A stretch of 64,000 nucleotides of DNA, from contig CAVZNW010000002.1 of the NCBI GenBank assembly GCA_963776755.1, positions 269,733 to 333,732 of the forward strand, given 5' to 3'. Below the pieces are notes generated by a model, which did no database searches, was not told where the DNA came from, and saw nothing but the letters and a program-made list of their open reading frames with translations. Shown piece after piece: positions 3,627 through 26,188 of this stretch. This DNA is from an uncultured Acidobacteriota bacterium. Its GTDB lineage: Bacteria > Acidobacteriota > Thermoanaerobaculia > UBA5066 > Gp7-AA6. The position numbers and the translations under genes are program-made. Within the stretch, counting starts at the first letter, position 1; each line of letters begins with the position of its first letter.

Positions 3627-4353
3627 CGCGGCGGCGGCCGCCGCGGCCGACCGCGCAGCCGCCGAGCGGGAGCGCATCGAAGCCGAGTACCGCCGGCGCG
3701 AGGCGGAGATCGACCCGGATCGGTACGCCGCGTGGCAGCCCGCGGAGCTCTTCTTCCGGAGCGAGCGGCGCCGCGTGGCGGCGGAGCTGCTGCGCAGGGC
3801 CGGGGTCTTCCCGCGGCCGGGGGACGACTGCCTGGAGATCGGGTACGGCGCCCTGGGCTGGATGGGGGAGCTTCTCTGCTTCGGCCTGCGGGAAGCCGAT
3901 CTGCACGGCATCGAGCTCGATCCGGTGCGCTTTGCCCGGGCGAAGGAAGCGCTCCCCGCGGCGGACCTGCGGCAGGGCGACGCGTCCGCGCTGCCGTGGC
4001 CCGCGGCGACGTTTCGCCTCGTCATCGCTTCGACGCTGATGTCCTCGATTCTCGACGAGGCCATGCGCCGACAGATCGCCCGGGAGATGACCCGGGTCCT
4101 CGCGCCCGGAGGCGCCGTCCTCTGGTACGACTTCACCGTCAACAACCCCGCCAATCCCCACGTCCGCGGGATCCGATCCCGCGAGGTCGCCGCGCTCTTT
4201 CCCGGCCTGAAGAACCGCGCGCACCGGACCGTGACGCTGGCGCCGCCCGTCGCCCGCCGCGTGGCCCCCTGGAGCTGGCTCGCCGCGAGCGTTCTCGAAG
4301 CGCTTCCCTTTCTTCGCACGCACCTGCTGACGGTGCTCGTAAAGGAGTCCTGA
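3598..4353 (+). CDS. Class I SAM-dependent methyltransferase
   Basis: LEIGYGALG motif I, LHGIELD, GDASALPW, and LAPGGAVLWYDF. Confidence 0.85.
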   Translation: MSRPEAPGADAAAAAAADRAAAERERIEAEYRRREAEIDPDRYAAWQPAELFFRSERRRVAAELLRRAGVFPRPGDDCLEIGYGALGWMGELLCFGLREADLHGIELDPVRFARAKEALPAADLRQGDASALPWPAATFRLVIASTLMSSILDEAMRRQIAREMTRVLAPGGAVLWYDFTVNNPANPHVRGIRSREVAALFPGLKNRAHRTVTLAPPVARRVAPWSWLAASVLEALPFLRTHLLTVLVKES

Positions 4354-5611
4354 ATGAAGGAGTCGGTCCCTTACTTTCGCCCGGAGATCGGTGAGGACGA
4401 GGTCCAGGAGGTGGTTTCGGCGCTGCGCTCGGGCTGGCTGACGACCGGGCCGCGCGTCAAGCGCTTCGAGGACGAGTTCGCGGCGGCAGTCGGCGCGCCG
4501 CACGCGGTTGCCGTCAACTCGTGCCACCGCGGCCCTCCACCTGGCCGTCGAGGCGCTCGGCCTGAAGGCGCGGCGAGGCCGTCCTCGTCCCGACCATGAC
4601 GTTCGCCGCCACGGCCGAGGTCGTGCGGTACCTCGGCGCCATCCCGATCCTGGTCGACTGCGACCCGGTGACGCTCAACATCGACCTCGACGACGCCGAG
4701 CCGCAAGCTCGACGCGCTCGCGGCGGCGCAGGCTCCCGGCGAAGGTCTCCTGCGGGCGGCCCGGTCGGGATCATCCCGGTCCACGTCGGCGGCCTGATGA
4801 TGGACATCGCCCGCACTCCGCGCCTTCGCCGAAGCGCACAGCGGCTCTGGGTCGTCGAGGACGCCGCGCACGCGTTTCCGGCGGCCTGGCGGCCGCCGCG
4901 GCGGGCGCCTGGCAGCGCTGCGGCGAGCGACACGTCGGCCGTCAGCTGCTTCTCCTTCTACGCCAACAAGACGATCACGACCGGCGAAGGGGGCATGGCG
5001 GTCACGGCCGACGCCCGAGCTCGCCGAGCGGATGCGGCTGCATGTCGCTCCACGGACTGTCGCACGACGCCTGGAACCGCTACAGCGGCGGCGGCAAGCT
5101 GGGACTACCGGATCGTCGCGCCCGGGCTTCAAGTACAACCTGACGGACGTCGCGGCGGCGATCGGCATCCACCAGCTCGCGCGCGCCGAGGCGATGCGCC
5201 AGGAGCGCGAGACGATCGCCGGCGGCTCTACCGCGACGCCTGGCCGGACATCGACGAGGTGGAGCTGCCGCCTGGCCGGACGACCGGGTCCACGCCTGGC
5301 ACCTGTTTCCGATCCGGCTGCGGCTCGATCGGCTCGCGATCGACCGCGACGCCTTCATCGACGAGCTCAAGGCCCGCGGCGTCGGCTGCTCCGTCCACTG
5401 GCGGCCGCTGCACCTCCACCCTACTACGAGGAGACGTTCGGCTGGAGGGCGGAGGACCTGCCCGTGGCCACGCGCGTCTGGGAACAGCTCGTGAGCCTTC
5501 CCCTCTTTCCGGGCATGCGGCCGGGAGAGATCGCGCACGTGGTCGGAAACCGTGCGCGCCATCGCTCGCGAGCACGCGGCCGCCGCGCGTGCCGCGACGG
5601 GGAGGCCCTGA
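4354..5611 (+). CDS. DegT/DnrJ/EryC1/StrS family PLP aminotransferase (reconstructed across frameshifts)
   Basis: [58 protein letters not shown] and LSLPLF are found in successive frames. Confidence 0.88.
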
Positions 5612-6258
5612 ACATCCAGAGCCCGTCCGCGGCCCCGCGCTCGGGCGGCGGACTTCCGCGCTGGGTCGAGGTCCCGATGGCACTCGTCGGCCTGGCGGCG
5701 GCGGCGCCCATCATCGCCGCCGCGGGAATCGCGATCGCCGCCGGCAGCGGCCTTCCCGTGTTCTTTCGCCAGGTCCGCGTCGGGCGCCATGGAAGGCCCT
5801 TCACGCTCGTGAAGCTGCGGACGATGCGGGGGGCGGCGAGCGGGCCGCAGGTCACCTCCCGCGGCGATGCGCGCATCACCCCCGTCGGTCGCTTCCTGCG
5901 TCGGACCAAGCTCGACGAGCTGCCCGAGCTCTGGAACGTCCTGCGCGGCGAGATGTCGTTCGTCGGCCCCCGGCCGGAAGTGCCCGGCTACGTCGACGCC
6001 GCGGACCCCGTTTGGGCCGAGATCTTGCAGGTCCGTCCAGGTCTGACGGACCCGGTGACAATCCGTTTGAGAGACGAGGAGGGACTGCTGGAGAAAGTCG
6101 AAGGCGACAGGGAGCGGTACTACAAGGAAACCCTTCAGCCCATTAAACTTAAGGGCTACCTGGACTACCTCGGGGCCAGGACGTGGAGGTCGGACGTTCG
6201 CGTGATTTTCGAGACTCTCGGGGCCGTCCTCCGCACGAAAGGGTCACCGGCATCTTGA
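5608..6258 (+). CDS. Phosphoglycosyl transferase (Bac_transf, PglC/WcaJ-like)
   Basis: FFRQVRVGRHGRPFTLVKLRTM, RITPVGRFLRRTKLDELPELWNVLRGEMSFVGPRPE and VRPGLTD. The start is uncertain (possible CTG at 5608 overlapping the upstream TGA). Confidence 0.88.
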   Translation: MNIQSPSAAPRSGGGLPRWVEVPMALVGLAAAAPIIAAAGIAIAAGSGLPVFFRQVRVGRHGRPFTLVKLRTMRGAASGPQVTSRGDARITPVGRFLRRTKLDELPELWNVLRGEMSFVGPRPEVPGYVDAADPVWAEILQVRPGLTDPVTIRLRDEEGLLEKVEGDRERYYKETLQPIKLKGYLDYLGARTWRSDVRVIFETLGAVLRTKGSPAS

Positions 6259-6283
6259 AAATCTTGCTCCATTGCCTTACCGT
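6255..6283 (+). promoter_or_regulatory. Possible sigma70-type promoter for the dehydratase gene
   Basis: TTGAAA (6255-6260), a 17 nt spacer and TACCGT (6278-6283) in an AT-rich patch. Confidence 0.35.
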
Positions 6284-6421
6284 TTCACGTTCAAATCAAA
6301 TGAGTTCAGCCGCCGTCGGGCGGGGAGGAACGAGTGCCGCGGCGCCGCGACATTCCTTCATCCCCTTCCCGGAAGCGAATCGAGTGAGCGCCGGACTCCA
6401 ACGGCAGAGGGCGGATTTGTC

Positions 6422-8372
<1,951 letters not shown>

Positions 8373-8432: not shown

Positions 8433-9930
8433 TCAGCGCCCGGAGGGCCGCTCGACCGTGCGCGGCGCCCTCGGATCGGGCGCCGAGGTCTCGGGCCCCC
8501 GGCGAGCGTGCTCCGTCGTGATCAGGACGAAGGCGTTGAACTCCGGCCCGGTGGGCGGCGGGGCGGGCCAGCCGACCGGCGCGGCGACCGTCAGTCCCGC
8601 CATCGGAATCGAAACCGGGCCGCTCTCGTAGGTTCCCGCCACGACCGGCTCGCCGAAGAAGTCCTGGACGTTGCGGATCTCGAAGCGGTCGCCGGGCGCG
8701 AGGATCGCGCCGAGGTCGACGTCGACGGCGGACTTCAGGTCCCAGTTGTAGATCGTGATGTTGGCGCGGCCCGGCTCGTACTGGTTGGGGCGGAGGAAGA
8801 TGCGCTGGCCGGTCGGGCGTTGAGCCAGGTAGTCGTTCTCCGGGTAGTGCGCCGGTGCGACGCCGGCGACGGAGCCCAGGAACGTGTTGCCCGTCATGGA
8901 AACAGGGAGGCACTTCACGAAGACCACGCCGTTGGATGCGTAGTTGTCGGTGACCACCGCGTCGGTGCACCCCGCCTGGAAACCCACGTCGAGCGCCGAG
9001 ACCGGGCCGCCCGTCGGGTAGTAGAGGAGGTTGTCCCGGATCGTCGGGCTCCTCGCGACGCGACCGCCGCCGAGCAGGAGATTGCGACCGCCGGACGACG
9101 ACAGGTCGCCGGAGTTGAACACCGTGTTGCCTTCGATGTCGAAGTTGTCGAGGGGCGCGGCGTCGGAGCCATAGGCGTGGATTCCGTGGCTGAATCCGGA
9201 AAATATGATGTTGTCGGCGATGCGCTTGGTGCCGGTTTCGTTCTGCGTGTAGATGCCGTGGCCGTGGCCGCGGTCGGCCGATTCCCAGCCGTTGTAATAG
9301 ATCAGCGAGCCGTAGACCTCTCCGTCGATCGCCTCTTTCCAGAAGCTGACCCCTTGCCGCGTGTCGTGCAGAACGAGATTGATGAAGCGCAGGCCCGGCC
9401 CGGTCGTGGAGCCCTGGTTCGTCAGGACGGCCTCGCCCCTGGGAATCTCCGAGCCGGACGGCCACGAGCCCGTCGAGGAGGTCTGTCGGAGCGGATCGGA
9501 GCTGGTGACTTCGAACCCCCAGTACCAGGTGTACGACCCTTCGACCGTCAGGATCGCGGATCCATTGGTGGCGCCGCCATCCAGAGTCGCTCGTTCTCCC
9601 GGAAGAGCCCGGACGATGATCGGACGATCCGCGGCCCCCTCGAGTCGGCTTCGGTAGGCCCCCGCGTAGGTTCCTCCGCGGAGCCAGATGGTGTCGCCGG
9701 CCTCGACCCCGGAGGAGCCCGACAGCGCAGTCGCGAGGTCCCACGGGTCCCCTGCGGTCCCGCGGCCCTGGGGACGCCCCGTGGGCGACGCATAGAACGA
9801 GCTGCCCGGAACCGGTCGAGGAGACCGTCGTGAGTGCGGATTCGCTCGCAGCCGTCTGTGCGCCGGCCGAACAAAGCACGCTGGCGCTGCAGGCGAGCAG
9901 CCCGACCGCAATTCTCGTGCGGGGATTCAC
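8433..9930 (-). CDS. Secreted right-handed parallel beta-helix protein, paralog 1 (no SLH)
   Basis: GTG at 9930 gives a signal peptide (NPRTRIAVGLLACSASVLCSAGA) that joins ORF 8433-9911 through one indel near 9800. [27 protein letters not shown] and GHGHGIYTQN fit the DUF1565/pectate-lyase-like fold. Confidence 0.78.
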
Positions 9931-9942
9931 GCTGGGATTGTA
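9931..9942 (-). promoter_or_regulatory. -10 element positioned for a leaderless transcript
   Basis: On the minus strand, TACAAT (9942-9937) is followed by 6 nt and then the GTG start at 9930. There is no Shine-Dalgarno. Confidence 0.55.
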
Positions 9943-10092
9943 CGGCCAAGCGGGGGTTCGGAGTGTGAGCCCGACCACGGGGTCCGTTACCCCAGGGCTG
10001 ACAGGGACCTACCGCCCTTAGGGATGGGTTAAGGACCCGAACGAGATCGTCGCCAGGTCGCCGGCCGGCACACGGAGCGCGGGATCCGAGGC

Positions 10093-12004
10093 TTACGGGG
10101 TGAGGGCGAAGGTCCGGACGAGCAGGGTTGCCATGGGACCCCGTTTGACGGGCGCCGCGGGGCAAAAGCGGCCGCCCCCGCAGCCCGAGCTGATTCCCCG
10201 GTTCGCAAGGTCCTCGATCCAGGCTGCGGCGAAGGCGTTGGCCGGGACGTCCGAAAAGACGGTCCCCGTCGCGGCCGGTGGCGCGTACGCTGCGCCGAGA
10301 CTCGATCGCAGCAGGAAAATTGCCATCTGTGCCCGGCTGATCGCCGAGCCGGGGCAGTAGATGTTGGTGCCGCATCCGCCGGTGATCCCTTCCGAGGCGA
10401 GCGCCTCGATCCAGTCCGCGGCGAAGGCGTTGGCCGGAACGTCGTCGAAGACCGCACCCGAAGCCGGGGCCGGAACCTAGGCCGCAGCCATGCGCGCTGC
10501 GGAGCAGGAACACCGCCATCTGGTCACGGCGAACGACCTGGTCGGGCAGTAGTCGCCGCTGCCGCAGCCGGCGGTCACCCCGGCGGCCGCGAGAGTCACG
10601 ATGTCGTCGTGATGGGGGTTGGATGGGAACACGTCCAGGAACTCGTTCGGGCCTGGAGCCGCAATGCAGGACATATGCGTTGAAATCGGGGCCTGTGACC
10701 GCGGGCGCGGGCCAGCCGACCGGCGCGCTCGGCGCCAGATTCGTCGGGAGCGAGATCGGAGATCCGTCGTACGTTCCCGACACGACGGGGAAGCCGAACA
10801 TGTCCTGCGCGTTGCGGATTTCGAAGGCCTGGCCGGACGGTGAGGATCGAGCTGAGATCGACGGAGACGGACGACAGCGCGTCCCAGTTGAACACCGTGA
10901 TGTGCGCGCGACCCGTCTCGTACTGGTTCGGCCGCAGGAAGACCTTCACGCCCGTCGGCCGGGAGGAGTAGAAGCTGTTGTCCGGGAACTGGCCCGGCGT
11001 GAATCCCTGGATCGAACCGTAGAAGCGTGTTGCCGGTGATGGTCATCGAGCTGCAATACACGGCGACGTTGTTGGCGATGTAGTTGTTCGTCACCGTCGG
11101 ACTCTGGCAATTCGACCCGAACAGGCCGAGCTTGAGCGCCGTGGTGGGGCCGCCGGCGTAGTAGAGCGAGTTGCTGATCAGCTTCGGGTTCAGGGTCTGA
11201 CCCTCACCTCCGACCAGCACGTTCCGCGTGAAATCGCCGCCGATCCCGTTCAGGAAGATCGTGTTGCCCTCGAGGCTCGATGTCGTCGACGTACGCCGCG
11301 GACGAACCGTAGAACTGGGCGCCCTCTCCGAAGTTGGAAGAAGACGATGCTGTCGGTCACCCTCTTGGTGTTCCCGGCATTGGTTCTGGCCGTAGACGCC
11401 GTGGCCGTGCCCGTCGTCCGGGCGCTGCCAGCCGTTGTAGTAGACGATGCTGCCGTAGATCTCGGAGTTCGTCGCTTCGTCCCAGAAGCTGAAGCCCTGG
11501 CGCGTGTCGTGGACGATCATGTTGATGAACTTCAGGCCGTCGTGGGTGCGTGCTCTGGTCGATCACGACGCCCTCGCCGCGCGGGATCTCCGTCCCGTTG
11601 GGGCCGGGGCCGGACACGGAGGAGACCCGGTCCGTGTTCGAGGACATGACCTCGAAGCCCCAGTACCAGGTGTAGGCCCCCTTCACGAAGAAGATCGGCA
11701 GCCCGCTGGAATTGCCGCCGTCGATGATCGCGCGCTCGCCGGGGTATTGCCGAACGATGATCGGATTGGTCGCGCCGCCCGTCAACTTGCTCGTGTACCG
11801 CCCCGGGTACGTGCCGCCCCGCAGCCAGATCGTGTCGCCGGGCTGGACGGCGCCGGGTTGATCGAGCGCCGTCTGCAGCTTCCATGGACTGGCGAGGCTG
11901 CCGTTGCCGCTCCCGCTGGCGGCGGGCGAAACGTAGAAATCCGAGGCGGCGGCGAACGAGGCGCAGAGAGCCAGGGCCGCTGCACCGACGATCCGCTGAC
12001 TCAT
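10093..12004 (-). CDS. Secreted beta-helix protein, paralog 2, with three C-terminal SLH repeats (frameshifted)
   Basis: Signal peptide MSQRIVGAAALALCASFAAA, the same beta-helix head as paralog 1, then three repeats of F.DV....WIE.LA..GI..GCG...YCP....R.QMA.FL at about 10093-10650. Confidence 0.8.
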
Positions 12005-12033
12005 GTTCCGATGTTACGCAGGCGCGGCCCCGA

Positions 12034-12069
12034 AGGCTACTGTCCCTTCAAGCGTTCCGTGGGACAGGT
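12034..12069 (-). promoter_or_regulatory. Conserved upstream motif pair ACCTGTCC ... CAGTAGCCT
   Basis: Plus-strand AGGCTACTG (12034-12042) and GGACAGGT (12062-12069). Both elements recur at 15084-15092 and 15111-15117 at nearly the same distance from the paralog's start codon. Confidence 0.55.
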
Positions 12070-12108
12070 TCCGCGGCCTTGCGGCCGCTGGCCACAGGGG
12101 CAGGCGCG

Positions 12109-15052
12109 CTACTGCAGGCCGAAGGCGCGGACGAGGAAGGCCGCCATCTGCCCGCGCGAGTTCGGGAGGTTCGGGCAGAAAATGCCGGTACCGCATCCCG
12201 AGGTGATTCCCTCGCGCGCCAGCTCTTCGACCCAGGGCGTGAACGGATCGTTGATCTGGAGGTCGGTGAACATGCCGGTCGCCGGGGGCGGGGCGTATCC
12301 CGCCGCGTGGGTGGCCCGCAGAATGAAGACCGCCATCTGCGCCCGGGTCACGATGCCGTTGGGACAGTAGCGGCCGCTGCCGCAGCCGGAGCTGATCCCC
12401 TCGTCGGCGAGCTGTTCGATCCACGCCGCCGCGAAGGAGCCCGCGGGGACGTCGCTGAAGACCGTCCCCGTCGCCGCCGGGGGAGCGTAGCCGCTGCCGT
12501 GCTTGCTCTTGAGCAGGAAGACGGCCATCTGGGCCCGGGTCACGCCGCTGGACGGGCAATAGAGGCCGTTGCCGCAGCCGGTCGTGATGTCGTTGTCGGC
12601 GATCGTCTCGATGAACTCGTAGAACGGGTTCGACGGGGGCGCGTCCGCGAACGTCGTCACGTTGCCCTCGGTCGGGACGAAGTCCGGATCGTTGGTCACG
12701 ATGATGCGATCGACCAGGCTGCCGACCTCGCGTCCGTCCAGTTCAATCCAGTTCGACCCGGCCTGGAGCGTCACGATCCGCGGGTCGAGGGTCAGCGGGA
12801 TCCCGGTCCCGGCCCGGCCGTTCAGGATCGACCACTGCCAGTCCGGCGACCAGGTGCCTTCCGCGAGGTCGTAGACGTCCGTGCCGTTTCCCGCCGCGTT
12901 GGCGAAGAACGAGTCCTTCGTGGCGCTCGTCGCGAGCACCCGGCACCAGACGTAATAGTTGCCGCTCGCCGGAACGTTGAAGTTCCAGCGCGCCGAGCCG
13001 GCATCGCTGCTGCTGGTCGAGACGAACTGGCCACCGAACGTTCTCGTGGAGCTGCCGACGGCCATCGGAGCGGTCACCGTTCCCGGATTCGGCTTCGAGT
13101 CGCAGGATGAACGGCACCGGCGTGGGCGTCGGGGTTCCCGTGGGCGCGGGCGTGCTGGTGCGCGTCGGCGTCGCGGTCGGCGGCGGCGGGGTGGGCGTGC
13201 GCGTCGGGGTCGGCGTGGCCGTCGGAGGCGCCGGAGTCGGAGTGGCGGTCGGAGGCGCGGCCGTAAAGGTCGGCGTCGGCGTCGAAGTCGGGGGCGCCGG
13301 CGTATGGGTCGCGGTCGGAGGAACCGGCGTGGCCGTCGGCGTGGGGGTCGGTGACGGTCCGTCGGTCGGCGTGAGCGTGGCGGTCGGTGTGAGCGTGGCG
13401 GTGGGGGTGGCCGTGGGAGGCGCCGGAGTCGGCGTGTCGGTCGGTGTCGCCGTCGGCGGCGGGGGCGTGGGCGTCCACGTCGCCGTTGGCGTCGCGGTCG
13501 GCGTGAAGGTCGCGGTCGGCGTGAACGTCGCGGTTCGCGTCGGCGTGGCGGTCGGCGTCGACGTGGCGGTCGGCGTCCGGGTGGCCGTCGGCGTCGAAGT
13601 CGGCGGCGGCGGCGTCGGGGTTCGCGTGGCCGTGGGGGTCGCGGTCTTCGTCGCCGTCGGCGTGGCCGTCGGCGAGCCGCCGGGCGACGCGGGCAGCAGC
13701 AGGAAGACGTTGAAGTCGAGGCCGGTGTTGGGAGGCGTCGGCCAGCCGATCGGCGCGGCCGGCGTCAGGTTCATCGGAAGCGAGATCAGCGAGCCGTCGT
13801 ACGTACCGGAGACGATCGGCCGCGCCCAGGACGTCCTGCCCATTGCGGATCTCGAAGCCCTGGCCCGGCGTGAGCACGCCGCTCAGGTCCACGGAGACGG
13901 TGGACTGCGCCGCCCAGTTGAACACCGTGATGTTGGCCCGACCGGCCTCGTACTGGTTGGGGCGAATGAAAACCTTCACGCCCGTGGGGCGGGAGGAGTA
14001 GTAGGTGTTGTTCGGGAACTGGGTCGGCGTGAACCCCTCGATCGAGCCGTAGAACGTGTTGCCGTTGATGGTCATCGAGTTGCAGAAGACCGTGACGTTG
14101 TTCGCGATGTAGTTGTTCGTGACAGTGCGGGCTCTGGCAGTTCGGCGCCGGACAGCCCGAGCTTGAGCGCGGTCGTCGGACCGCCCGGCGAGTAGAAGAG
14201 GTAGTTGCTGATGAGCTTCGGGTTCTGAGACGGGGCCTCGCCGCCGACGAGCGCATTGCGCGTGTAGCCCGTCGAGGCCGTTCTGGAAGAGCCGTGTTGC
14301 CTTCGAGCTGGATGTTGTTGATGACCGCCGCGGAGGAGCCGTAGAACTGGAGGCCTTCGCCGAAATTGGAAAACACGATGCTGTCGGTGACCTTCTTGGT
14401 GTCGATCCGGTTCTGGCCGTAGACACCGTGGCCGTGGCCGTCGTCCGGGGCGCTCCAGCCGTTGTAGTAGACTGATGCTGCCGTAGATCTCGGAGTTCGT
14501 CGCTTCGTCCCAGAAGCTGAAGCCCTGGCGCGTGTCGTGGACGATCATGTTGATGAACTTCAGGCCGTCGTGGGCGGTGCTCTGGTCGATCACGACGCCC
14601 TCGCCGCGAGGGATCTCGGTGCCGTTCGGGCCCGGGCCGGACACCGAGGAGACCCGGTCCGTGTTCGAGGACATCACCTCGAAGCCCCAGTACCAGGTGT
14701 AGGCGCCCTTCGACGAAGAAGATCGGCGATCCCGTTGGAGTTGCCCCCGTCGATGATCGCGCGTTCGCCGGCGTACTGCCGCACGAATGATCGGATTGCT
14801 CGCAGCTTCCGGTCAGCTGACTCGTGTACGTCCCGGTGTACGTCCCTCCCCGCAGCCAGATCGTGTCGCCCGGCATGCACGGCCGACGGATGGTTCAGCG
14901 CCGTCTGCAGCTTCCAGGGGTTCCCGATGGTCCCGTTGCCGCTGGAGCTCGCGCGTCGGGGAGACGTAAAACTCGCTGGCCCCGGCGACACCCGCGAGAG
15001 CCATGAGCAGAGCAAGGCTCAGGCCGGGTGTCCGCCGAAACGCGAATCTCAT
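12109..15052 (-). CDS. Secreted beta-helix protein, paralog 3: beta-helix, long Pro/Thr stalk, CBM6/35-like beta-sandwich, three SLH repeats (frameshifted)
   Basis: ATG at 15052 gives the signal peptide [25 protein letters not shown]. The head closely matches paralog 2. A PTATPT linker spans 13110-13690, followed by [24 protein letters not shown] and SLH repeats at 12109-12660. Confidence 0.8.
13110..13690 (-). repeat. Coding low-complexity Pro/Thr tandem repeat, about 190 aa
   Basis: Translates as [31 protein letters not shown]... in ORF 12743-13843. Confidence 0.9.
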
Positions 15053-15083
15053 GACGTGGAGGATGCCCTCTCCGGCGCTCCGC

Positions 15084-15156
15084 AGGCTACTGGTCACGAA
15101 GGCCGAAGACGGACAGGAGCCCGTTGAGGAGGCAGCTACTGTTCTCACGGACAGGT
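15084..15156 (-). promoter_or_regulatory. Duplicated motif pair upstream of paralog 3, including a lux-box-like 20-mer
   Basis: AGGCTACTG (15084-15092), GGACAGG (15111-15117), then TACTGT-N8-ACAGGT (15137-15156), which fits CTG-N10-CAG. Confidence 0.55.
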
Positions 15157-15319
15157 TCCGGGTGGCGCGATCCTCCGAACAGCCTTTGAATCGCGTGTTT
15201 CTTGTCCGGATGAGAGGTGGGCGCCGCGGGCAGGTGCAGCAAAAGTACAGGTGACGTCGGCGGCTCCCGGCGACGCCTGGCAAAACGGGCGGGATACTTG
15301 CTAGGAGCCCATAGTCACA

Positions 15320-16084
15320 ATGCTCGGTCGTCACGCGTACAAATCCCAGAGCGGCGGTCGTCGCTGGCTGTACCGCGTCTGGGGCGCTCCGTCCATCCAC
15401 GTCCGCCAGAAGTGGTCGGCGGTCTGGCCGCTCGTTTCCGAGCTGCCCCAGCAGGATCTCGAGATCCTCGACCTCGGTTGCGGCAAGGGCGACTGGGTGC
15501 TCGAGATCGCCGCGCGCCGGCCCGGCTGGAAAGTGATCGGCGTCGACCGGAGCCACGAAGCCGTCGCGAGTGCGGAGGCCGGCGTGGGCGCGCTGGCGCT
15601 CGAAAACGTCCGTCTGCGGGTCAGCGATTTTTTCGACTACGCGGCGCAAAAGCCCTTCGACGTCGTCCTGTCGATCGCCGCGATCCACTACGCGGCGCGC
15701 GACGGGCGCATCGATGAATTGTTCGATCGTATGCGATCGTGGGTCAAACCGGGAGGGCGTCTTCTTCTGCTCGTTCCCCGCCGGCGCGCCCGGGTTCCGT
15801 TCTGGCGCCGGCTGCCCCATCAGGAGTGGCATGCGGTCTTCTCGGCGGCGGATCTGCTTCGCCTCTGCGAGGAGCACGGCTTTGCGGTCGAATCGCTCTC
15901 GGGCACGGTCGGGCCTCGCAGGACGGCCGCCAAGCAGATCGATTGGCTGGTCAACTCCCGCTGGCCCGCCCTGCGCTCGCTGGCCTATCCCCTGATCTGG
16001 CTCCTGAGCGCCACCGAACCGGCCGTGTTCGCTTCGCGCCAGATCCCGACGGCGTTCTGGACACTTTCCGCGCGGGCCCATTGA
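15320..16084 (+). CDS. Class I SAM-dependent methyltransferase
   Basis: ILDLGCGKG, VIGVDRS, DVVLSIAAIHY and VKPGGRLLL. Confidence 0.88.
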   Translation: MLGRHAYKSQSGGRRWLYRVWGAPSIHVRQKWSAVWPLVSELPQQDLEILDLGCGKGDWVLEIAARRPGWKVIGVDRSHEAVASAEAGVGALALENVRLRVSDFFDYAAQKPFDVVLSIAAIHYAARDGRIDELFDRMRSWVKPGGRLLLLVPRRRARVPFWRRLPHQEWHAVFSAADLLRLCEEHGFAVESLSGTVGPRRTAAKQIDWLVNSRWPALRSLAYPLIWLLSATEPAVFASRQIPTAFWTLSARAH

Positions 16085-16142
16085 TTCGATCGGCCCCCGC
16101 CCCGGATCAGCGGTCTCTCCGTGCCCGGCCGGCGTGCGAAAT

Positions 16143-16162
16143 ACCTGTCCCTGGGTACAGGT
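16143..16162. promoter_or_regulatory. lux-box-like palindrome ACCTGT-CCCTGGGT-ACAGGT
   Basis: Perfect 6-bp arms with an 8 nt spacer. It ends 6 nt upstream of a candidate TTGCTC-N17-TACCCT promoter (16169-16197). Confidence 0.6.
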
Positions 16163-16204
16163 TCGCCCTTGCTCCGGCGCTCCAAAAAACGTACCCTGCC
16201 GTCA

Positions 16205-16879
16205 GTGTCGAAAGGTGTTCCGCGCCGTCGGGCTACGGTCTGCTTGCTTGCCTTCCACCCGCTCGTGCTTTCGGAGTTCGAGCGGCTTCTCGCGGAGCAT
16301 CCGCTCGCGGTCACGCCCCGGCGCCTGGAGCCCGACCTGATCGCCGACCCGGCGAAGCTGAACGTTCCGCGGGCCTCCGTCTACGTGGTGGAAAGCCATG
16401 CGCACCGCCCGACGACCGAGGCGCTCGTCGTCGGGGTGATCGGGCGGCAGCCGGCGGCCCGGGTCCTGGTGGTCGCCGAGAAGTTCGGGCAGGCGGAAGC
16501 CTTCCCGCTGCTTCGACTCGGCGCCAAGGGTCTCCTGACGTTTGCCGAGGCCTCGGAGCAGCTCGCGCGCGCGGTGTTGGAGGTCGCGAGCGGCGGCTTC
16601 TGGGTCCCGCGCTCCCTGCTGTCGAGCTTCGTGGACGAGACCATCAGCTCGGTCCGGCGCCCCCGGGGGCCCGTCGGCCCGGCCCGGCTGTCCCGCCGGG
16701 AGAAGGAAGTTCTGGAGGCGCTGCTCGAGAATCTGTCCAACAAGGAGATCGCGAGCAAGCTCAACATGTCCGAGCGAACGGCCAAGTTCCATGTTTCCAA
16801 TCTGTTGGCCAAGTACGGGGTACGCCGGCGGGCCGACCTGATCCTCCTGACCTACACGCAGCTCGAGAAGCCCGTCTAG
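16205..16879 (+). CDS. LuxR/NarL-family HTH regulator with an atypical (pseudo) receiver domain
   Basis: C-terminal LSRREKEVLEALLENLSNKEIASKLNMSERTAKFHVSNLLAKYGV. The N-terminal REC-like fold ends in GAKGLL..LARAVLEVASGGFW. The in-frame GTG at 16205 is preferred over 16121 because it follows a -10 element. Confidence 0.88.
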   Translation: MSKGVPRRRATVCLLAFHPLVLSEFERLLAEHPLAVTPRRLEPDLIADPAKLNVPRASVYVVESHAHRPTTEALVVGVIGRQPAARVLVVAEKFGQAEAFPLLRLGAKGLLTFAEASEQLARAVLEVASGGFWVPRSLLSSFVDETISSVRRPRGPVGPARLSRREKEVLEALLENLSNKEIASKLNMSERTAKFHVSNLLAKYGVRRRADLILLTYTQLEKPV

Positions 16880-16887
16880 CGGGCCCT

Positions 16888-16916
16888 TTGACAGGGCCCC
16901 GGGCGTCGAATAGCCT
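16888..16916 (+). promoter_or_regulatory. Sigma70 promoter of the PQQ-dehydrogenase/SLH genes
   Basis: TTGACA (16888-16893), a 17 nt spacer and TAGCCT (16911-16916). Confidence 0.7.
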
Positions 16917-16946
16917 GCAACCTCTACCGACAACAGAGATTCAAGG

Positions 16947-19900
16947 ATGAAGAGGCCTCTGCTCGCCGCCGCATTTGTATTGGCCGTCACAAACGGCCTG
17001 GCGGGCGCGGTGCTGCCCGCGGGATTCACGGAAACCTCCTGGAGCGGGATCACCAATCCGACGGCGATGGCGGTCGCTCCGGACGGCCGGCTCTTCGTCT
17101 GCGAGCAGGGCGGCAAGCTCCGCGTCATCAAGAACGGCGTCGCTGCTGCCGACGCCGTTCGTGACGCTGACCGTCGATTCCGCCGGCGAGCGGGGCCTTC
17201 TCGGCGTCGCGTTCGACCCGAACTTCCTCTCCAACCAGTACGTCTACGTCTACTACACGGTACCGGGCTCGCCGTCGCACAACCGGCTCTCGCCGCTTCA
17301 CGGCCAACGGCGACGTCGCGCTCTCCGGGCAGCGAGCTCGATTCTTCTCGAGTTGAACGACCTGACGTCGCCACCAACCACAACGGCGGCGCCATCCACT
17401 TCGGCACCGACGGGAAGCTCTACGTCGCGGTCGGCGACAACGCGACCGGCTCGAACTCGCAGACGCTGACCAACCTCAAGGGCAAGATCCTCCGCGATCG
17501 GCGTGCCGCCGGACCCGCGATTCCGACCGACAACCCCTTCTACGGCCAGGCGACCGGCAACAACCGCGCGATCTGGGCCCTCGGCCTGCGCAACCCGTTC
17601 ACCTTCGGTGTTCAGCCGGGGACCGGCCGGATCGTTCATCAACGACGTCGGGGAGAACACCTGGGAGGAGATCAACGACGGCGACGCCGGCGACAACTAC
17701 GGCTGGCCGACGTCCGAGGGCGACTGCAACAATCCCGAGCTACGAGGACCCCCTCTACACGTACAACCACTCGCGGAGCGTGCTCGATCACCGGCGGCGA
17801 CTTCTACAACCCCGACGTTCCGCAGTTCCCGGCGAGCTACGTCGGCAAGTACTTCTTCGCCGACTACTGCGGCGGCTGGATCAAGTACATCGATCCGGCC
17901 TCCGGCACGCCCAGCGCCACCACCTTCGCGACCGGAATCTCGAGCCCGGTCGACGTCCGGACGGACTTCAACGGGTACCTCTACTACCTCGCCCGCGGCG
18001 AGGGCAAGGTCTACCGGATCACGTACACGGGCTCGAACGCCCCCACGATCACGGAGAACCCGCAGAGCCAGCTGATCTCGACGGGCCACCCGGTCACCTT
18101 CACCGTCAGCGCGACGGGCCAGGCGCCTCTCTCCTACCAGTGGCAGCGCAATTCGACGGACATCGGCGGCGCGACCGTCTTCCTCCTACACGATCGCCTC
18201 GGTCGGCAGCGGCGACAACGGCGCCCAGTTCCGCTGCATCGTCTCCAACGCAGTTCCCCCGAGCGCCACGAGCGCGCAGGCGACGCTGACGGTGACGTCG
18301 AACCAGCCGCCCGCGGCCACGATCTCCTCGCCCACGGCGGGCACGACCTACGGCGGAGGCGACACGATCGCCTATGCGGGCAGCGCCAGCGACCCGGAGA
18401 CGGGCGCCTTGCCGGCTTCGGCCTTCACCTGGTGGGTCAACTTCCACCACGACACGCACTTCCATCCGTTCCTGCAGCCGACGAGCGGCGAGACGAGCGG
18501 CTCGATCACGATCCCGTCGTTCGGCGAGACCTCGGCCAACGTCTGGTACCGGATCCACCTCTCGGTCGTCGATCCGGCGGGCCTGACGGACGAGACGTAC
18601 GTCGACGTGATTCCGCGGACCACGACGATGACGCTCTCGACCAATCCCAACGGCCTTCAGCTCACGCTCGACGGACAGCCGTTCACGGCGCCGCTCGACG
18701 TCGTCGGCGTCGAAGGGATCCGGCGCACGCTCGGCGCGCCGTCGCCCCAGTCCTCGGGGGGCAACACCTACAACTACGTTTCCTGGTCCGACGGCGGGCT
18801 CCAGACCCACGACATCTTCACGCCCGTGTCCGACACGACCTACACGGCGCTGTACACCAGCGGCCCGACGCCGACCTTCACGCGCACGAACACGCCGACG
18901 ATGACCCGGACGGCCACGGCGACGGCGACCCGCACGGCGACCCCCACGGCGAGCCCGACGCCGCCCTCGGGCTCGCTGCCGCCGCCCTGGGCGCAGCAGG
19001 ACGTCGGCTCGCCGGGGGTCGCCGGGAGCGCGGGGTACGCGAGCGGCGTCTTCGCCGTGACCGGGTCGGGCGCGGACATCGAAGAGGCGTCGGACCAGTT
19101 CCACTACGTCTACCAGACGTTGAACGGCGACGGCACGATCCAGGCGCGCGTCGCGACGCAGCAGAACACGGACCCGTGGGCCAAGACCGGCGTCATGATG
19201 CGCGAGACCCTCCTGGCCGGCTCGAAGCACGCGATGATGGCGATCACGCCGAGCAACGGCCTGATCTTCCAGCGCCGCACCTCGACCGGCGGGGCCACCT
19301 CCTCGACGTTCGGCGCGGCCGTCGCCGCGCCGTACTGGGTCCGGATCGTGCGGGCCGGGCTCGAGCTTCAGCGCCTACAGCTCGCCGGACGGCTCCACCT
19401 GGACGCTGCTCGGCACGAGCACGATCACGATGGCGACGAGCATCGTGGTGGGCCTCCCGGTGACGAGCCACAACAACTCGGTGCTCGGCACCGCGACCTT
19501 CGACAACGTCGCGGTCACGCCGACGATCACACCGACGCCCTCGTTCACGGCGACGGTGACCAGCACCTCGACCCCCTCTCGGACGCCGACGCAGACCTGG
19601 ACCTCGACGGTCACGCCGTCGCGGACGAACACGCCGACGTTCACGTCCTCGCCGACGGCCTCGCGCACGCCGACGCAGACGCCGACGGGGTCGGCGACGC
19701 CCACACGGACTGCGACGGCGACCGCCTCGCGCACACCGACGCAGACGGCGACGGGATCGGCCACGGCGACGCGGACGGCGACCGCCACGGCGACCCGCAC
19801 GCCGACGGTCACCGCGACCCAGCCCGCCGGAGTGCCGCCGCCCTGGGTGCAGCAGGACGTCGGAGCGGTGGGGCTGCCCGGCACCGCGACCTATGCGGGC

Positions 19901-21478
19901 GGCGCGTTCGGCGTCGACGCCTCCGGAACGGACATCGAGGAGACGTCGGACCAGTTCCACTACGTCTACCAGGTCCTGACGGGCGACGGCGCGATCCAGG
20001 CCCGCGTCGCCGCCATCGAGAACACCGACCCGTGGGCCAAGGGCGGCGTCATGATCCGCGAGACCCTCGCGGCGGACTCGAAGCACGCGATGATGGCTCT
20101 CACGCCCGCCAACGGCCTCGTCTTCCAGCGGCGGCCGACGACCGGGGGCACGACCGACAGCACGTTGGGGGCCGCCGTCTCCGCGCCTTACTGGGTGCGG
20201 GTCGTCCGGACAGGCTCGACCCTCGCCGGCTACAGCTCGCCGGACGGCGCCACCTGGACGCTCGTGGGATCGACCACGATCAGCATGTCCTCGAGCGTCC
20301 TCGCGGGGATGCCGCTGACGAGCCACAACAACTCCCTGCTCTGCTCGGCCACCCTCGACAACGTCCTGTTCTCGCCGACGATCACGCCGACGCCGAGCCA
20401 TACGCCGACGCAGACGCTCACGTTCACCCCGTCGCAGACGCCGACCCAGACGCCGACGCAGACTCGAACTTCATCGCCGACGGCGAGCCGCACGGCGACC
20501 GCGACCAACACGGCCTCCGCGACGCCGACGAACACGCCGACCGCGACCCGGACGGGATCGGCGACCGCGACGCCGACCCGGACCAACACGCCCACCGTCA
20601 CCCCGGCCGCGCCGACGGTTTCTTCGATCGCGCCGACCTCCGGCCCGGCCGCCGCGGGCAACGCCGTCTCGGTGGGCGGCTCGAGCTTCCAGCCGGGGGC
20701 GACGCTCAAGATCGGCGGCGCCGCGGCGACGACCGTGGTCGTCGTCAACGGCGGCCAGATCACCGGCAAGACGCCGGGGCTGTCGGCCGGCACGCTCAAC
20801 GACGTGACGGTGACGAACCCCGGTAATCTCTCCTCGACGCTGACGAAGGGCTGGTTCGCCGACTTCTCCGACGTGCCCCAGGCCAACCCGTTCCACGGCG
20901 ACATCGAGACCGTCTTCCGGGACGGGATCACCGGCGGCTGCGGCGCGGGCCAGTACTGCCCGACCAATCTCGTCACGCGCGCCCAGATGGCCGTCTTCCT
21001 CCTGAAGGGGATGCACGGGGGCGCCTACGCGCCGCCGGCCTGCTCGACCACGGTGTTCGCCGACGTGCCGTGCCCGGGCGGCCCGTTCGTCGACTGGGTC
21101 AATCAGCTGTCCGCGGAGGGCATCACCAGCGGCTGCGGCGGAGGCAACTATTGCCCGAACAGTTCACTCACCCGGGCGCAGATGGCCGTGTTCCTGCTCC
21201 GGGGCGAGCACGGGAGCGCCTACGCTCCGCCCGCGTGCAGCGCGACGGTCTTCGCCGACGTGCCGTGTCCCGGGGGTGCGAACGTGAACTGGATCAACCA
21301 GCTCGCCTCCGAGGGTGTGACCGCCGGCTGCGGCAACGGGAACTACTGCCCGGCGGCCGCGACTCCGCGCCAGCAGATGGCCACGTTCCTCGTGCGCACC
21401 TTCGGCCTGACTTCGCTCGCCGGGCGAACGCCGGTCACCCGGCCGGCGGACCTGCGTCCCGGCGTGAGGCGTCCCTAG
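16947..21478 (+). CDS. Secreted PQQ-dependent glucose/sorbosone dehydrogenase (GSDH) multidomain protein 1: GSDH, Ig, PKD-like, two ConA-like domains, Pro/Thr stalks, IPT/TIG, three SLH (frameshifted)
   Basis: Signal peptide [62 protein letters not shown] and ITGGDFY, then LSYQWQRN (Ig), two PWx[21 protein letters not shown] domains, [12 protein letters not shown] (TIG) and SLH repeats. Confidence 0.85.
18860..20610 (+). repeat. Three coding Pro/Thr/Ser linkers (about 18860-18960, 19520-19830 and 20380-20610) flanking two duplicated domains of about 180 aa
   Basis: [11 protein letters not shown] and [13 protein letters not shown]-type translations. The domains at about 18975-19515 and about 19835-20375 are similar at DNA and protein level. 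Confidence 0.85.
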
Positions 21479-21479
21479 G

Positions 21480-24387
21480 GTGCGGCGCCCGCTCGGCGCT
21501 CTGCTCCTGCTCCTCGCCGCCGCCGTCTCCGGCGGAGCCAGCCTGCCGGCGGGCTTCACCGAAACCTCCTGGAGCGGCATCACGAATCCCACGGCGATGG
21601 CGTTCGCGCCGGACGGCCGGCTCTTCGTCTGCCAGCAGGGCGGGGCGCTGCGCGTCATCAAGAACGGCGCGCTGCTGGCGACGCCGTTCCTGACGCTGAC
21701 CGTCGATTCGAACGGCGAGCGCGGCCTGCTCGGCGTCGCGTTCGACCCCAACTTCCTGCCGAACGCAGTACGTCTACGTCTACTACACGGCGCCGACGCT
21801 CGCCGCCGCACAACCGCGTCAGCCGCTTCACCGCCGAACGGCGACGTCGCCGGCTGCCGGCAGCGAGGTCATCCTTCTCGAGCTCAACAACCTGACGAGC
21901 GCCACGAACCACAACGGCGGCGCGATCCACTTCGGGCCGACGGCAAGCTGTACGTCGCGGTCGGCGAGAACGCCAACAGCGCCAACTCGCAGATCGCTGA
22001 CGAACCTGCTCGGGCAAGATCCTGCGCATCGACAGCCGACGGCACGATCCCGACCGACAATCCGTTCTTCACGACGGCCGACGCGGCGAACAACCGCGCG
22101 ATCTGGGCGCTCGGCCTGCGCAACCCGTTCACCTTCGCCTTCCAGCCCGGCACCGGGCCGGATGTTCATCAACGACGTCGGGCGAGAACACCTGGGAGGA
22201 GATCAACGACGGAATCGCCGGCGCCAACTACGGCTGGCCGACGTGCGAAGGGCGACTGCAGCAACCCGAGCTACGTACCGGACCCCTTCTACACGTACAA
22301 CCACATCACGGTCGGCTGCGCGATCACCGGCGGCGACTTCTACAACCCGGACGTGCCGCAGTTTCCGGCGAGCTACGTCGGCAAGTACTTCTTCGCCGAC
22401 TACTGCGGCGGCTGGATCAAGACCATCGACCCGACGTCGGGCTCGCCGACCGGCGACGACGTTCGCGACGGGGATCTCGAGCCCGGTCGACGTCCACGCG
22501 GACTTCGACGGGAACCTGTATTACCGTCGCCCGCGGCGAGCAACACAGGTCTACCGGGTCACGTACACCGGCTCGAACGCGCCGACGATCACGCAGGACC
22601 CGCTGAGCCAGCTCGATCTCCGTCGGCCACCCGGCGACCTTCAGCGTGAGCGCGTCGGGCGCGGCGCCGCTCTCGTACCAGTGGCAGCGCAACAGCGTCG
22701 ACATTCCCCGGGCGACGCTGTCGTCCTACACGATCGGCTCGGTCGGCCCTCGGCGACAACGGGGACCAGTTCCGGTGCGTCGTCACCAACGGAATCCTCC
22801 CGAACGCGACGAGCGCGCAGGCGACGCTGACGGTGACGTCGAACCAGCCGCCCACGGCGACGATCACGCTGCCGACGGCCGGGACGACGTACGCGGGCGG
22901 CGACACGATCGACTATTCGGGCACGGCGACGGACCCGGAGGACGGGCACGCTGCCCGGCCCGCGCCTTCACCTGGTGGGTGAACTTCCACCACGACACGC
23001 ACTTCCATCCGTTCCTCCAGCCCGACGACGGGCTCGACGAGCGGCTCGTTCACGATCCCGACGGTCGGCGAGACCTCCGCCAACGTCTGGTACCGGATCC
23101 ATCTCCAGGTCGTCGACCCGGCGGGCCTGACCGACGAGAAGTACGTCGACGTCATCCCGCGGACCGTCCACGATCACTCTGGCAACGAGCCCCAACGGCC
23201 TGCAGCTCACCCTCGACGGCCAGCCGCTGACTGCGCCGCAGGCGATCGTCGGCGTCGAGGGGATCATCCGGACTCTCGGCGCGCCCTCGCCGCAGTCCTC
23301 GGGCGGAGTCACCTACACCTACTTCGGCTGGTCCGACGGCGGCACGCAGACGCACGACATCTCGACACCCGTCAGCGACACGACCTACACGGCCAGCTTC
23401 ACGGGCGGCCCGACGCCGACGTTCACCTTCACGGGCAGCCCGACCCCCACGTTCACGCCTTCGCGGACTCCGACGCCGTCGCCGACCCCGGTCGCACCGA
23501 CCGTCTCGTCGATCGCCCCGTCCTCCGGCCCGGCCGCCGGCGGGACCGGCGTCACGGTGACCGGCTCGAGCTTCGTCAACGGCGCGACGCTGAAGCTCGG
23601 AGGCGTTGCGGCCGGGATCCGTCACGGTCGTCGGCCCGACGCAGATCACGGGCAACGCGCCCGCGCTTTCCGCCGGAACGCTCAACGACGTCCTGGTCAC
23701 CAACCCGGGAAACGGCCTGGGCACGCTGCCGCGGGGCTGGTTCGCCGATTTCGTCGGACGTGCCCCAGGCCAACATCTTCCACGGCGACGTCGAGACGAT
23801 CTTCCGCGGCGGCGTCACGGCCGGATGCGGGGGAGGCAACTACTGCCCGGCAGCCTCGTGACGCGCGCGCAGATGGCGGTCTTCCTGCTGAAGGGCGAGC
23901 ACGGCGGCAGCTACCAGCCCCCGGCCTGCTCGGCGACGGTTTTCGCGGACGTCCCGTGTCCCGGGCGGCCCGTTCGTCGACTGGATCAACCAGCTCGCGG
24001 CCGAGGGCATCACGGGCGGGTGCGGCGGCGGCAACTACTGCCCCTCGAATCCGCTCACGCGGGCGCAGATGGCGGTTTTCCTGCTGAAGGGCAAGCACGG
24101 CAGCGCCTACCAGCCGCCGGCCTGCTCGGCCACGGTCTTCGGCGGACGTGCCTTGCCCGGCGGCGCCGTTCGTCGACTGGGTCAACGAGCTTGCGGCCGA
24201 GGGCATCACCGCCGGCTGCGGCGGCGGCAACTACTGCCCGACGGCCGGCACGCCGCGCGGGCAGATGGCGACCTTCCTCGTCCGGACCTTCGGCCGTCCT
24301 GCTCGCCTGGCCCGGGCTCCGGCGAGCGGGGGCCGGCGCCCGGCGACCCTGATCCGCCGGACCAGGCCCCCGGACGCGGCGTGTTGA
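21480..24387 (+). CDS. Secreted GSDH multidomain protein 2: GSDH, Ig, PKD-like, short stalk, IPT/TIG, three SLH (frameshifted)
   Basis: GTG start and signal peptide [19 protein letters not shown]. The head is very close to protein 1 ([20 protein letters not shown]). It lacks the two ConA-like domains. Confidence 0.82.
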
Positions 24388-24412: not shown

Positions 24413-24495
24413 TACGCGCCCTCGAAACGGGGGCTCCGCCCGGGCCCGCCCTCGGCGCGGGCCTACCTTGAGAGTCTTGAATTAGGGGTTTGCAG

Positions 24496-24942
24496 ATGGC
24501 TTCTGGCACATCGACGGTAAAGGCAGCCGACGTCCGCCACGACTGGTTCGTGGTGGACGCCTCCGGCCAGGTCCTCGGCCGCCTCGCGACCAGGGTGGCG
24601 CGCATTCTCTCGGGCAAGCACCGGGCGAACTACGTGCCGTACCTCGACATGGGCGACTTCGTCGTCGTGACCAACGCCGAGAAGGTCAAGCTGACCGGCG
24701 CCAAGCTCGACGACGAAGGTCTATCGCCACCACACGGGTTTCCCGGGCGGCCTGAAGACGGTCGGGGCGCGCGAGCAGCAGGCGAAGTATCCCGAGCGCA
24801 TGATCGAGGACGCGGTGCGCGGGAATGCTCCCGAAGACCAAGCTCGGCCGCAAGCAGTTGAAGAAGCTCAAGGTCTACCGCGGGGACAAGCACCCGCACG
24901 AGGCGCAGCAGCCTCGCCCGTTGAAGGTCGTCGGCCGCTTAG
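24496..24942 (+). CDS. rplM: 50S ribosomal protein L13
   Basis: [37 protein letters not shown] and [17 protein letters not shown] across indels. Confidence 0.95.
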
Positions 24943-24971
24943 GCCGCGCAAGTCGAAAGCTCGGAGGAGTC

Positions 24972-25366
24972 TTGGCAGTCGACATCCAACACAGGGCGAC
25001 CGGACGGCGGAAGACCTCGATGGCGCGCGTCCGGCTCGTCCGGGCACGGGCGCGATCACCGTCAACAAGCGCTCCATCGACGACTACTTCCCCAACGACG
25101 TCCTCAAGATGGTCATCAAGCAGCCGCTCCAGGCGACCGAGACGGTCGAGAAGTTCGACATCCTCGTCGACGGTCGCCGGCGGCGGGCCGCCGGGCAGGC
25201 CGGGGCGATCCGCCACGGCATCTCGCGCGCGCTGATCGAGTACAACCTCGAGCTGCGCAAGAAGCTCAAGAAGGAAGGCTTCCTGACGCGCGACCCCCGG
25301 ATGAAGGAACGCAAGAAGTACGGACAGCACGGCGCGCGCGCCCGCTTCCAGTTCAGCAAGCGGTAA
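24972..25366 (+). CDS. rpsI: 30S ribosomal protein S9
   Basis: TTG start after [33 protein letters not shown] and [26 protein letters not shown]. Confidence 0.95.
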
Positions 25367-25412
25367 AGACGGCTCAGTCGCAGCTCGAGGCGACGGACAA
25401 GGGAGGTGTGAT

Positions 25413-26188
<776 letters not shown>

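Follow-up and report, generated by a model that had tools for sequence, protein, structure and literature searches.

Do five neighbouring genes for secreted proteins in an uncultured bacterium of the Thermoanaerobaculia (Acidobacteriota) form an undescribed system of their own, as an earlier note on this DNA proposed, or are they one part of something larger? The genes, here called A-E, occupy positions 8433-24387 of a 64,000-nucleotide stretch (C2:269733-333732, hereafter the window) of a 4.4-Mb genome that is assembled in 4 contigs at 70% G+C. Genes A-C carry one type of beta-helix head, genes D and E carry one type of GSDH propeller head, and B-E end in SLH repeats. We favor, with a probability of roughly 0.7, the reading that these are Sec-exported envelope proteins whose SLH trimers would tether them to a pyruvylated wall polymer as members of a genus-wide anchored proteome, with a probably polysaccharide-active beta-helix deployed in three forms.

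In the mechanism that we propose, Sec would export the products of genes A-E as modular envelope proteins, and the most likely ligand of their C-terminal triple SLH modules would be a pyruvylated polymer of the cell wall, by analogy with the SLH trimers of Firmicutes. The beta-helix head would be deployed in a released form, on a short tether, and on a long tether together with a carbohydrate-binding module (CBM)-like domain. The GSDH propeller, with an immunoglobulin-like (Ig) domain and a His-cluster domain, would be deployed on a short and on a long tether.

SLH anchoring in the genome and the genus

SLH anchoring is a well-established surface-display mechanism of Firmicutes, and in diderms it is known mainly for tethering the outer membrane. 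A genome-wide search with a profile hidden Markov model (HMM) of the SLH repeats in the window found 310 repeats in 116 loci, including 91 triple modules, of which 85 lie at the extreme C-terminus. With this HMM, each of genes B-E contains three SLH repeats (PF00395), and Pfam SLH matches were obtained for gene C (E=7.9e-18) and gene D (E=2.2e-11). In the AlphaFold2 model of P0124, an intact orthologue of gene E with 960 amino acids (aa), three helical SLH units occupy residues 768-936. The genome has a sole match to a CsaB-type pyruvyl transferase (PF04230, 159 bits; C4:322170-323081). It is part of an open frame of 1282 aa, and the SLH genes at C4:326801-330219 lie about 4 kb away.

The SLH expansion was found in 17 of the 18 same-genus genomes (G121-G138), at 28-318 candidate sites each. 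Among the other genomes sampled from the phylum, 23 of 120 had an SLH match, with 1-2 each. The expansion is genus-wide and almost missing from the rest of the phylum sample, and it is patchy within the order. Because this genome encodes about 91 triple-SLH proteins and the trait is genus-wide, the five-gene locus is a small sample of a genus-wide anchored proteome and not a stand-alone system. The proposal of an undescribed discrete system was thus not borne out, the more so since an array of about 26 such genes lies elsewhere in the genome. A search of the literature on SLH proteins of Acidobacteria or Thermoanaerobaculia returned nothing relevant.

The array just mentioned (C1:68000-143000) consists of about 26 same-strand tandem genes and is far larger than the A-E locus. 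Each of its genes encodes a signal peptide, a 'TFTVTNTNDSGPGSLRQAI...' beta-helix-repeat head, a TIG domain and three Cys-containing SLH repeats. In addition, about 23 small secreted proteins of the genome finish in a single SLH repeat, and C2:1483500-1500950 and C2:1231177-1233014 hold clusters of secreted proteins of 250-330 aa, each made of a domain of about 200 aa and one C-terminal SLH repeat. These small proteins might trimerise into one SLH module. Porins of the OmpM/SlpA type were considered and rejected, as the single-SLH loci encode small secreted proteins with the SLH repeat at the C-terminus.

The beta-helix genes and their mosaic evolution

Genes A-C are on the minus strand and show the three architectures that the earlier note had described, at essentially the same positions. 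Gene A (8433 to about 9950) encodes a signal peptide, a Pel9A-like right-handed beta-helix head and a C-terminal beta-sandwich with no anchor, about 490 aa in all. Its open reading frame (ORF) spans 8433-9911, with one frameshift near the N-terminus and possibly another near the C-terminus, and matches Pfam Beta_helix (PF13229) at E=1.8e-5. Gene B (10093-12004, about 635 aa) combines a signal peptide and the beta-helix head with three Cys-containing SLH repeats, and its intact homologues of about 630 aa have PF22842 and PF00395 on record as precomputed matches. Gene C (12109-15052, about 980 aa) encodes a signal peptide, the beta-helix head, a Pro/Thr linker of about 195 aa, a CBM35/Golvesin_C-like beta-sandwich and three SLH repeats; its CBM-like domain gave weak Golvesin_C and CBM_35 matches in the orthologues P0007 and P0017. 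Signal peptides at all five N-termini of A-E, also claimed before, were judged by eye.

Hardly any gene in the 8433-24387 region reads as one open frame. A frame-switching dynamic programme, with a codon-usage model trained on 654 long ORFs of the same genome, required 2, 10, 9, 12 and 18 frame changes in genes A-E, respectively (51 in total); gene A is closest to a single open frame, and B-E are each multiply broken. The breaks are most likely assembly errors, because rpsI, rpsB and a CapD-like gene of the same window are frameshifted too and because the completeness score of the genome is just 55.7% despite its 4 contigs. Decay into pseudogenes was judged unlikely, with rpsI and rpsB broken as well. 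No homopolymer enrichment was found near the 51 inferred shift sites of genes A-E. The Pro/Thr linkers were taken from native ORFs and not from the stitched sequences.

The copies at the locus are true paralogs. Nucleotide identity is 66-67% between A and B or C (about 50% at the aa level, 52% for B against A), 83% between the heads of B and C, and 84% between the heads of D and E. The objection that the copies are assembly duplications of one gene fails on this 66-84% nucleotide identity and on the orthologues of each class in other metagenome-assembled genomes (MAGs).

The beta-helix head belongs to a large, uncharacterised family. It has at least 1298 relatives, among which three sizes recur (about 470-500, about 630 and about 920-1080 aa), and several contigs hold two to four copies. 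A scan of GTDB species genomes placed the head at 573 loci in Acidobacteriota, Planctomycetota, Verrucomicrobiota and other phyla. Among the loci fetched, the ordered triad of a long (CBM and SLH), a short (SLH) and a head-only gene was present in at least 12 species-level MAGs of Thermoanaerobaculia/Acidobacteriota, which answers positively the earlier suggestion to look for synteny in other Acidobacteriota; outside the triad clade, the head occurs without SLH repeats. The locus is conserved within one Thermoanaerobaculia genus.

As had been noted before, genes A-C (minus) and D-E (plus) diverge from a central regulator. Two genes lie there, both on the plus strand: one for a class I S-adenosylmethionine-dependent methyltransferase (15320-16084; Pfam Methyltransf_23, E=2.5e-20), and one for a GerE/LuxR-type helix-turn-helix regulator (16121-16879; Pfam GerE, E=6e-17), which stands between the gene groups and precedes D in the same orientation. 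The methyltransferase gene adjoins the regulator gene and has the same position in L001/L003 and L016. Most triad loci have a luxR gene and GSDH genes on the opposite side, and sometimes the methyltransferase gene; the GerE regulator is in the syntenic position, with 79-95% aa identity, among the 13 related loci listed. The whole arrangement was found on a 1.27-Mb contig of a related MAG, in the order glycan genes, head-only, short, long, methyltransferase, GerE regulator, three GSDH genes and rplM-rpsI-rpsB. In the window, rplM, rpsI and rpsB (24490-25904) come after gene E, as in relatives.

Heads and anchors of the beta-helix genes gave different trees. In the SLH-module tree, modules from different genomes fall into two clades by class, a 'short' one of 8 rows (support 98/96) and a 'long' one of 11 rows (97/98), which includes the module of gene C. 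Because the SLH modules split by class across genomes, the long and short genes are best read as old orthologues. In the head tree, long and short heads pair within genomes in nearly every lineage, and the head-only copy shows partial orthology between genomes. An approximately unbiased (AU) test, for which the group of long heads was named only after the tree had been seen, rejected their monophyly (delta lnL 1243, AU p=0.0009). Within a genome, long and short genes share 58-100% identity in their heads and 53-64% in their anchors (83% in L030), whereas the median identities within a class between genomes are 53-54% for heads and 62-68% for anchors. In L006, L007 and L020 the head identity is not above the anchor identity. 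In L048 (439-6600), the aligned head regions of the long and short genes (339 residues) are 100% identical in protein and the SLH anchors 64%, which looks like a very recent conversion or replacement limited to the head. L043, L022 and L030 are listed with L048 as similar long/short cases. Since the anchors are orthologous by class and yet the heads are homogenised within genomes, the simplest explanation, and the one that these trees suggest, is that head-limited gene conversion keeps one beta-helix head on two stalks.

The GSDH genes behave differently. In three genomes, their Ig+X regions cluster with those of the same class, and that of gene D groups with other copies that have two DUF1349 domains. 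Concerted evolution of the GSDH heads was considered and rejected, as no homogenisation was seen and the class-wise grouping is ordinary orthology. Thus, the idea of the same head on different stalks held in that both head types occur in short and long forms and that the beta-helix heads are homogenised, and it did not extend to homogenisation in the GSDH pair.

Stalk length may be functional, to judge from the class-wise anchors combined with the homogenised heads. The homogenisation fits, without proving, the usefulness of one head on two tethers. Taken further, this leads to a display tiered by height, in which one beta-helix activity would be released, held near the wall, and held at a greater distance from it together with a CBM, the propeller would stand at two heights, and selection would keep the heads the same and the stalks different. 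The order and the three size classes kept in at least 12 MAGs speak for such a display, as do the homogenised heads on orthologous anchors, above all those of L048. But gene conversion between tandem repeats can run without selection for sameness, the Ig+X regions of the GSDH pair follow ordinary orthology, and an outer membrane is likely; overall, we consider a height-tiered display rather unlikely.

Fold and surroundings of the beta-helix head

From 73 sequences, AlphaFold2 modelled the beta-helix head as a right-handed beta-helix with a C-terminal beta-sandwich (pLDDT 94.6). The best Foldseek match was Pel9A (1RU4) of polysaccharide lyase family 9 (PL9), with E=4.6e-10, TM 0.49-0.56 and at most 16% identity. 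Further matches included a PL9 rhamnogalacturonan lyase, PL6 lyases, glycoside hydrolase family 136 (GH136) and phage tailspikes, as well as the mannuronan C5-epimerases AlgE4 and AlgE6 and the matrix lyase RbmB. Sequence searches of Pfam, NCBIfam and PDB, run with a single sequence as well as with a profile, yielded N-terminal cap or generic matches only and no CAZy-level assignment, and the fold similarity itself reaches a TM of only about 0.5. The NCBIfam PelN/PelX matches span the N-cap only, with 21-37 bits against cut-offs of 740-1490. PF22842 (Pel9A-like_beta_helix) is precomputed on record, and our own Pfam scans gave just PF13229 near threshold.

Like the PL9 lyases Pel9A and BT4170 (5OLQ/5OLR), the head is a right-handed parallel beta-helix with the N-cap motif YVSP...GD.I.L.GG.Y. 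It differs from them in that the sequence match is limited to this cap and in its own motif D-x-G-H-G-H-G-x-Y. The residues conserved in the head are His, Asp, Tyr, Arg and Lys; the groove of PL9 enzymes has a Ca2+-binding Asp cluster and a catalytic Lys. The polar residues H149, D150, H185, Y188 and R109 are invariant among the 73 sequences at about 50% overall identity, and H185 lies within the motif. With rung positions taken from the secondary-structure string, these residues hint at a site on consecutive rungs for binding a ligand or for catalysis. GH28-like motifs were considered and dropped, as their spacing differs and GH28 is low among the fold matches. A carbohydrate-active function is our best inference for the head: its groove, with conserved His, Asp, Tyr and Lys, is probably that of a polysaccharide lyase or hydrolase. 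The earlier claim of a glycan-degrading head therefore stands as far as the fold similarity to PL9, PL6 and GH136 goes, a similarity that is shared with phage tailspikes and that comes with low TM and low identity.

Glycan-biosynthesis genes on the plus strand (1043-8372) converge on gene A and are the same neighbors in the relative L003; by Pfam, they encode a UDP-glucose/GDP-mannose dehydrogenase, a methyltransferase, a DegT aminotransferase with Bac_transf, and a frameshifted CapD/PglF-like dehydratase. Furthermore, Omp85/BamA genes are present in the genome, so that the organism is probably diderm, and the implied outer membrane means that SLH-anchored proteins may be periplasmic and not surface-displayed. 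An SLH anchor in such a cell would ordinarily hold them on the peptidoglycan beneath that membrane, so that the surface exposure and the different distances from the envelope that the earlier note proposed are hypothetical. The A-E proteins could then be wall-tethered periplasmic enzymes that process the cell's own glycan made by the adjacent cluster (a secondary cell-wall polymer, an exopolysaccharide or a protein glycan), comparable to enzymes of the AlgG, AlgL and PelA type, and not nutrient scavengers. Such a role would agree with the position of gene A against a conserved glycan cluster both here and in L003, with Omp85, given which Sec and SLH would put the proteins on peptidoglycan in the periplasm, and with the fold matches to AlgE4, AlgE6 and RbmB. 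However, CBM-like, DUF1349 and TIG domains and long Pro/Thr linkers usually mark extracellular enzymes, many phyla have head-only homologues that lack this glycan neighborhood, and the adjacency of gene A is convergent and not operonic. We find it quite unlikely that glycan processing in the periplasm is the purpose of these proteins.

The GSDH module and comparison with known systems

Genes D and E are both on the plus strand. Gene D (16947-21478, about 1505 aa) encodes a signal peptide, the GSDH propeller, an Ig domain, a His-cluster Big_7-like domain and an InlB-B-like domain, followed by a Pro/Thr linker, a DUF1349 domain, a second linker, a second DUF1349 domain, a third linker, a TIG domain and three SLH repeats. 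The DUF1349 domains are ConA-like, and the orthologue of gene D in L001 is P0126 (1596 aa). Gene E (21480-24387, about 960 aa) encodes a signal peptide, a D-type head module of GSDH, Ig and two beta-sandwich domains, a short Pro/Thr linker, a TIG domain and three SLH repeats. Pfam and the stitched sequences thus confirm what had been described earlier, a GSDH head that occurs twice, long with two ConA-like domains and short, both with TIG and SLH.

The two PF07995 (GSDH) matches at the locus have E=4.6e-23 and 5.5e-21, and gene D matched 2ISM among PDB sequences (E=8e-29). In the P0124 model (pLDDT 85.9), the propeller reaches TM 0.86-0.88 to the Asd-type dehydrogenases 2ISM and 3A9G, and HHIP propellers are also among the strong fold matches. 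The earlier note had pointed out that the GSDH heads keep the HNGG and LRNP motifs of soluble pyrroloquinoline quinone (PQQ) sugar dehydrogenases, and our alignments agree: HNGG, with the catalytic His, aligns with HSGG, HNGG and HFGG, and LRNP with HRNP and IRNP. Among 60 aligned sequences, none departs from R215 or N216, and at least 90% keep H145; the NYGWP motif is conserved as well.

Soluble PQQ aldose sugar dehydrogenases (E. coli YliI/Asd 2G8S, T. thermophilus 2ISM, P. aerophilum 3A9G/3A9H; A. calcoaceticus sGDH) share the six-bladed propeller with the GSDH head at 28-29% identity. Unlike Asd and sGDH, the head has Phe or Tyr for the Gln of RNPQG and an extra conserved Arg in GERGLLG, and it is always fused to Ig, Big_7-like and B-repeat domains. 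Furthermore, the C-terminal RxR arginines are not kept: the HMM alignment sets S-P-V opposite R-I-R of 2G8S (RIRDV in YliI), 2ISM carries RLREV at this place, and 'SSPVD' replaces the arginine motif family-wide. In sGDH, Arg406 and Arg408 hold the PQQ carboxylates (PMC6881789). No pqqC was found in the genome, which is possibly incomplete (best TIGR02111 match 42 bits against a cut-off of 240), and external PQQ uptake may be the remaining supply route.

Six-bladed PQQ/AA12-type propellers are secreted, abundant in Acidobacteria and often near carbohydrate loci, and all of the nine required PQQ-binding residues are present in 483 of 2,290 propellers (Voutsinos et al. 2026, bioRxiv 10.64898/2026.07.10.737718). 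Compared with these, the GSDH head is without at least the C-terminal Arg equivalent, and no cytochrome gene neighbors the conserved locus. Because the RxR arginines are replaced family-wide, pqqC is missing and few of the surveyed propellers have the full signature, the PQQ dependence of the head, and its 'sugar-oxidising' activity, are unproven. The database name "PQQ-dependent sugar dehydrogenase" does not seem to be fully supported by the family's own residues and should not be read as a function. Of the earlier claim of a sugar-oxidising head, what stands is the propeller fold, the catalytic His and the Arg-Asn pair.

In every case, GSDH and Ig are followed by a beta-sandwich of the Big_7-like type that carries an invariant FHHDTHxHP cluster and conserved Asp and Glu (about 18290-18900 in D and about 22830-23440 in E; residues 457-557 of P0124). 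It had no sequence match in PDB, and Pfam gave only weak Big_7, PKD and Flg_new_2 matches. The cluster possibly binds a metal. For the module of about 640 aa that GSDH, Ig and two beta-sandwich domains form, more than 6,666 relatives were found, and their C-terminal appendages vary widely; the module is very widespread and uncharacterised, and its TIG and SLH form is confined to Thermoanaerobaculia-like MAGs. About six more GSDH-propeller loci are present in the genome (among them C1:1970, C2:2033355, C4:352347 and C2:2362845-2373758), several of them in long ORFs that end in SLH repeats.

That neither head is catalytic, the propeller binding a ligand as in HHIP and the beta-helix being an adhesin, or the whole an S-layer-like coat, would suit the lost arginines, the missing pqqC, the HHIP fold matches and the adhesin-like beta-helix repeats in the array of about 26 SLH genes, but seems improbable in view of the (nearly) invariant catalytic His, RN pair and NYGWP in the 60 aligned relatives and of a beta-helix in which His, Asp, Tyr and Arg residues are invariant although the overall identity is about 50%.

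Several points count against the reading that we prefer, that of Sec-exported, SLH-tethered envelope proteins with a probably polysaccharide-active beta-helix. The stitched A-E sequences contain local errors. To this are added results given above: the beta-helix without a CAZy-level assignment, the GSDH head without its arginines in a genome without pqqC, the outer membrane implied by Omp85/BamA, the three genomes with heads no more alike than their anchors, and the choice of the AU test group after the fact. A fuller picture would have a diderm genus use the SLH/pyruvylated-polymer anchor as a general display platform for about 90 proteins, with head conversion keeping the head the same on two stalks beside a released copy, with tether length under selection, and with a GSDH module that may be PQQ-independent or may have a novel mode of binding PQQ or a metal; we regard this combination as doubtful.

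The closest known counterparts are SLH-anchored glycan enzymes of Firmicutes, namely Paenibacillus sp. JDR-2 XynA1, Paenibacillus FPU-7 ChiW, Ruminiclostridium Cel5I and the Caldicellulosiruptor SLH glycoside hydrolases (PMC5132251, PMC4765114, PMC4976890, PMC6081394). They have in common with the A-E locus the Sec signal, a catalytic-type head, CBM- or Ig-like spacers, Pro/Thr linkers and triple SLH modules, and the CsaB homologue in our genome corresponds to what is described for Firmicutes SLH trimers on pyruvylated secondary cell-wall polymer. What differs here is the likely diderm Acidobacteriota host, the Cys residues in the SLH repeats, the uncharacterised head families, the very large scale of about 90 such proteins per genome, and the mosaic evolution of heads and anchors, with a conserved head-only/short/long triad and homogenised heads.

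About 90 enzyme- or adhesin-like SLH proteins in the genome of a soil Acidobacteriota bacterium raise the question of where they are positioned relative to the outer membrane. In addition, the head-only/short/long triad offers a natural experiment on the importance of tether length in envelope enzymes.

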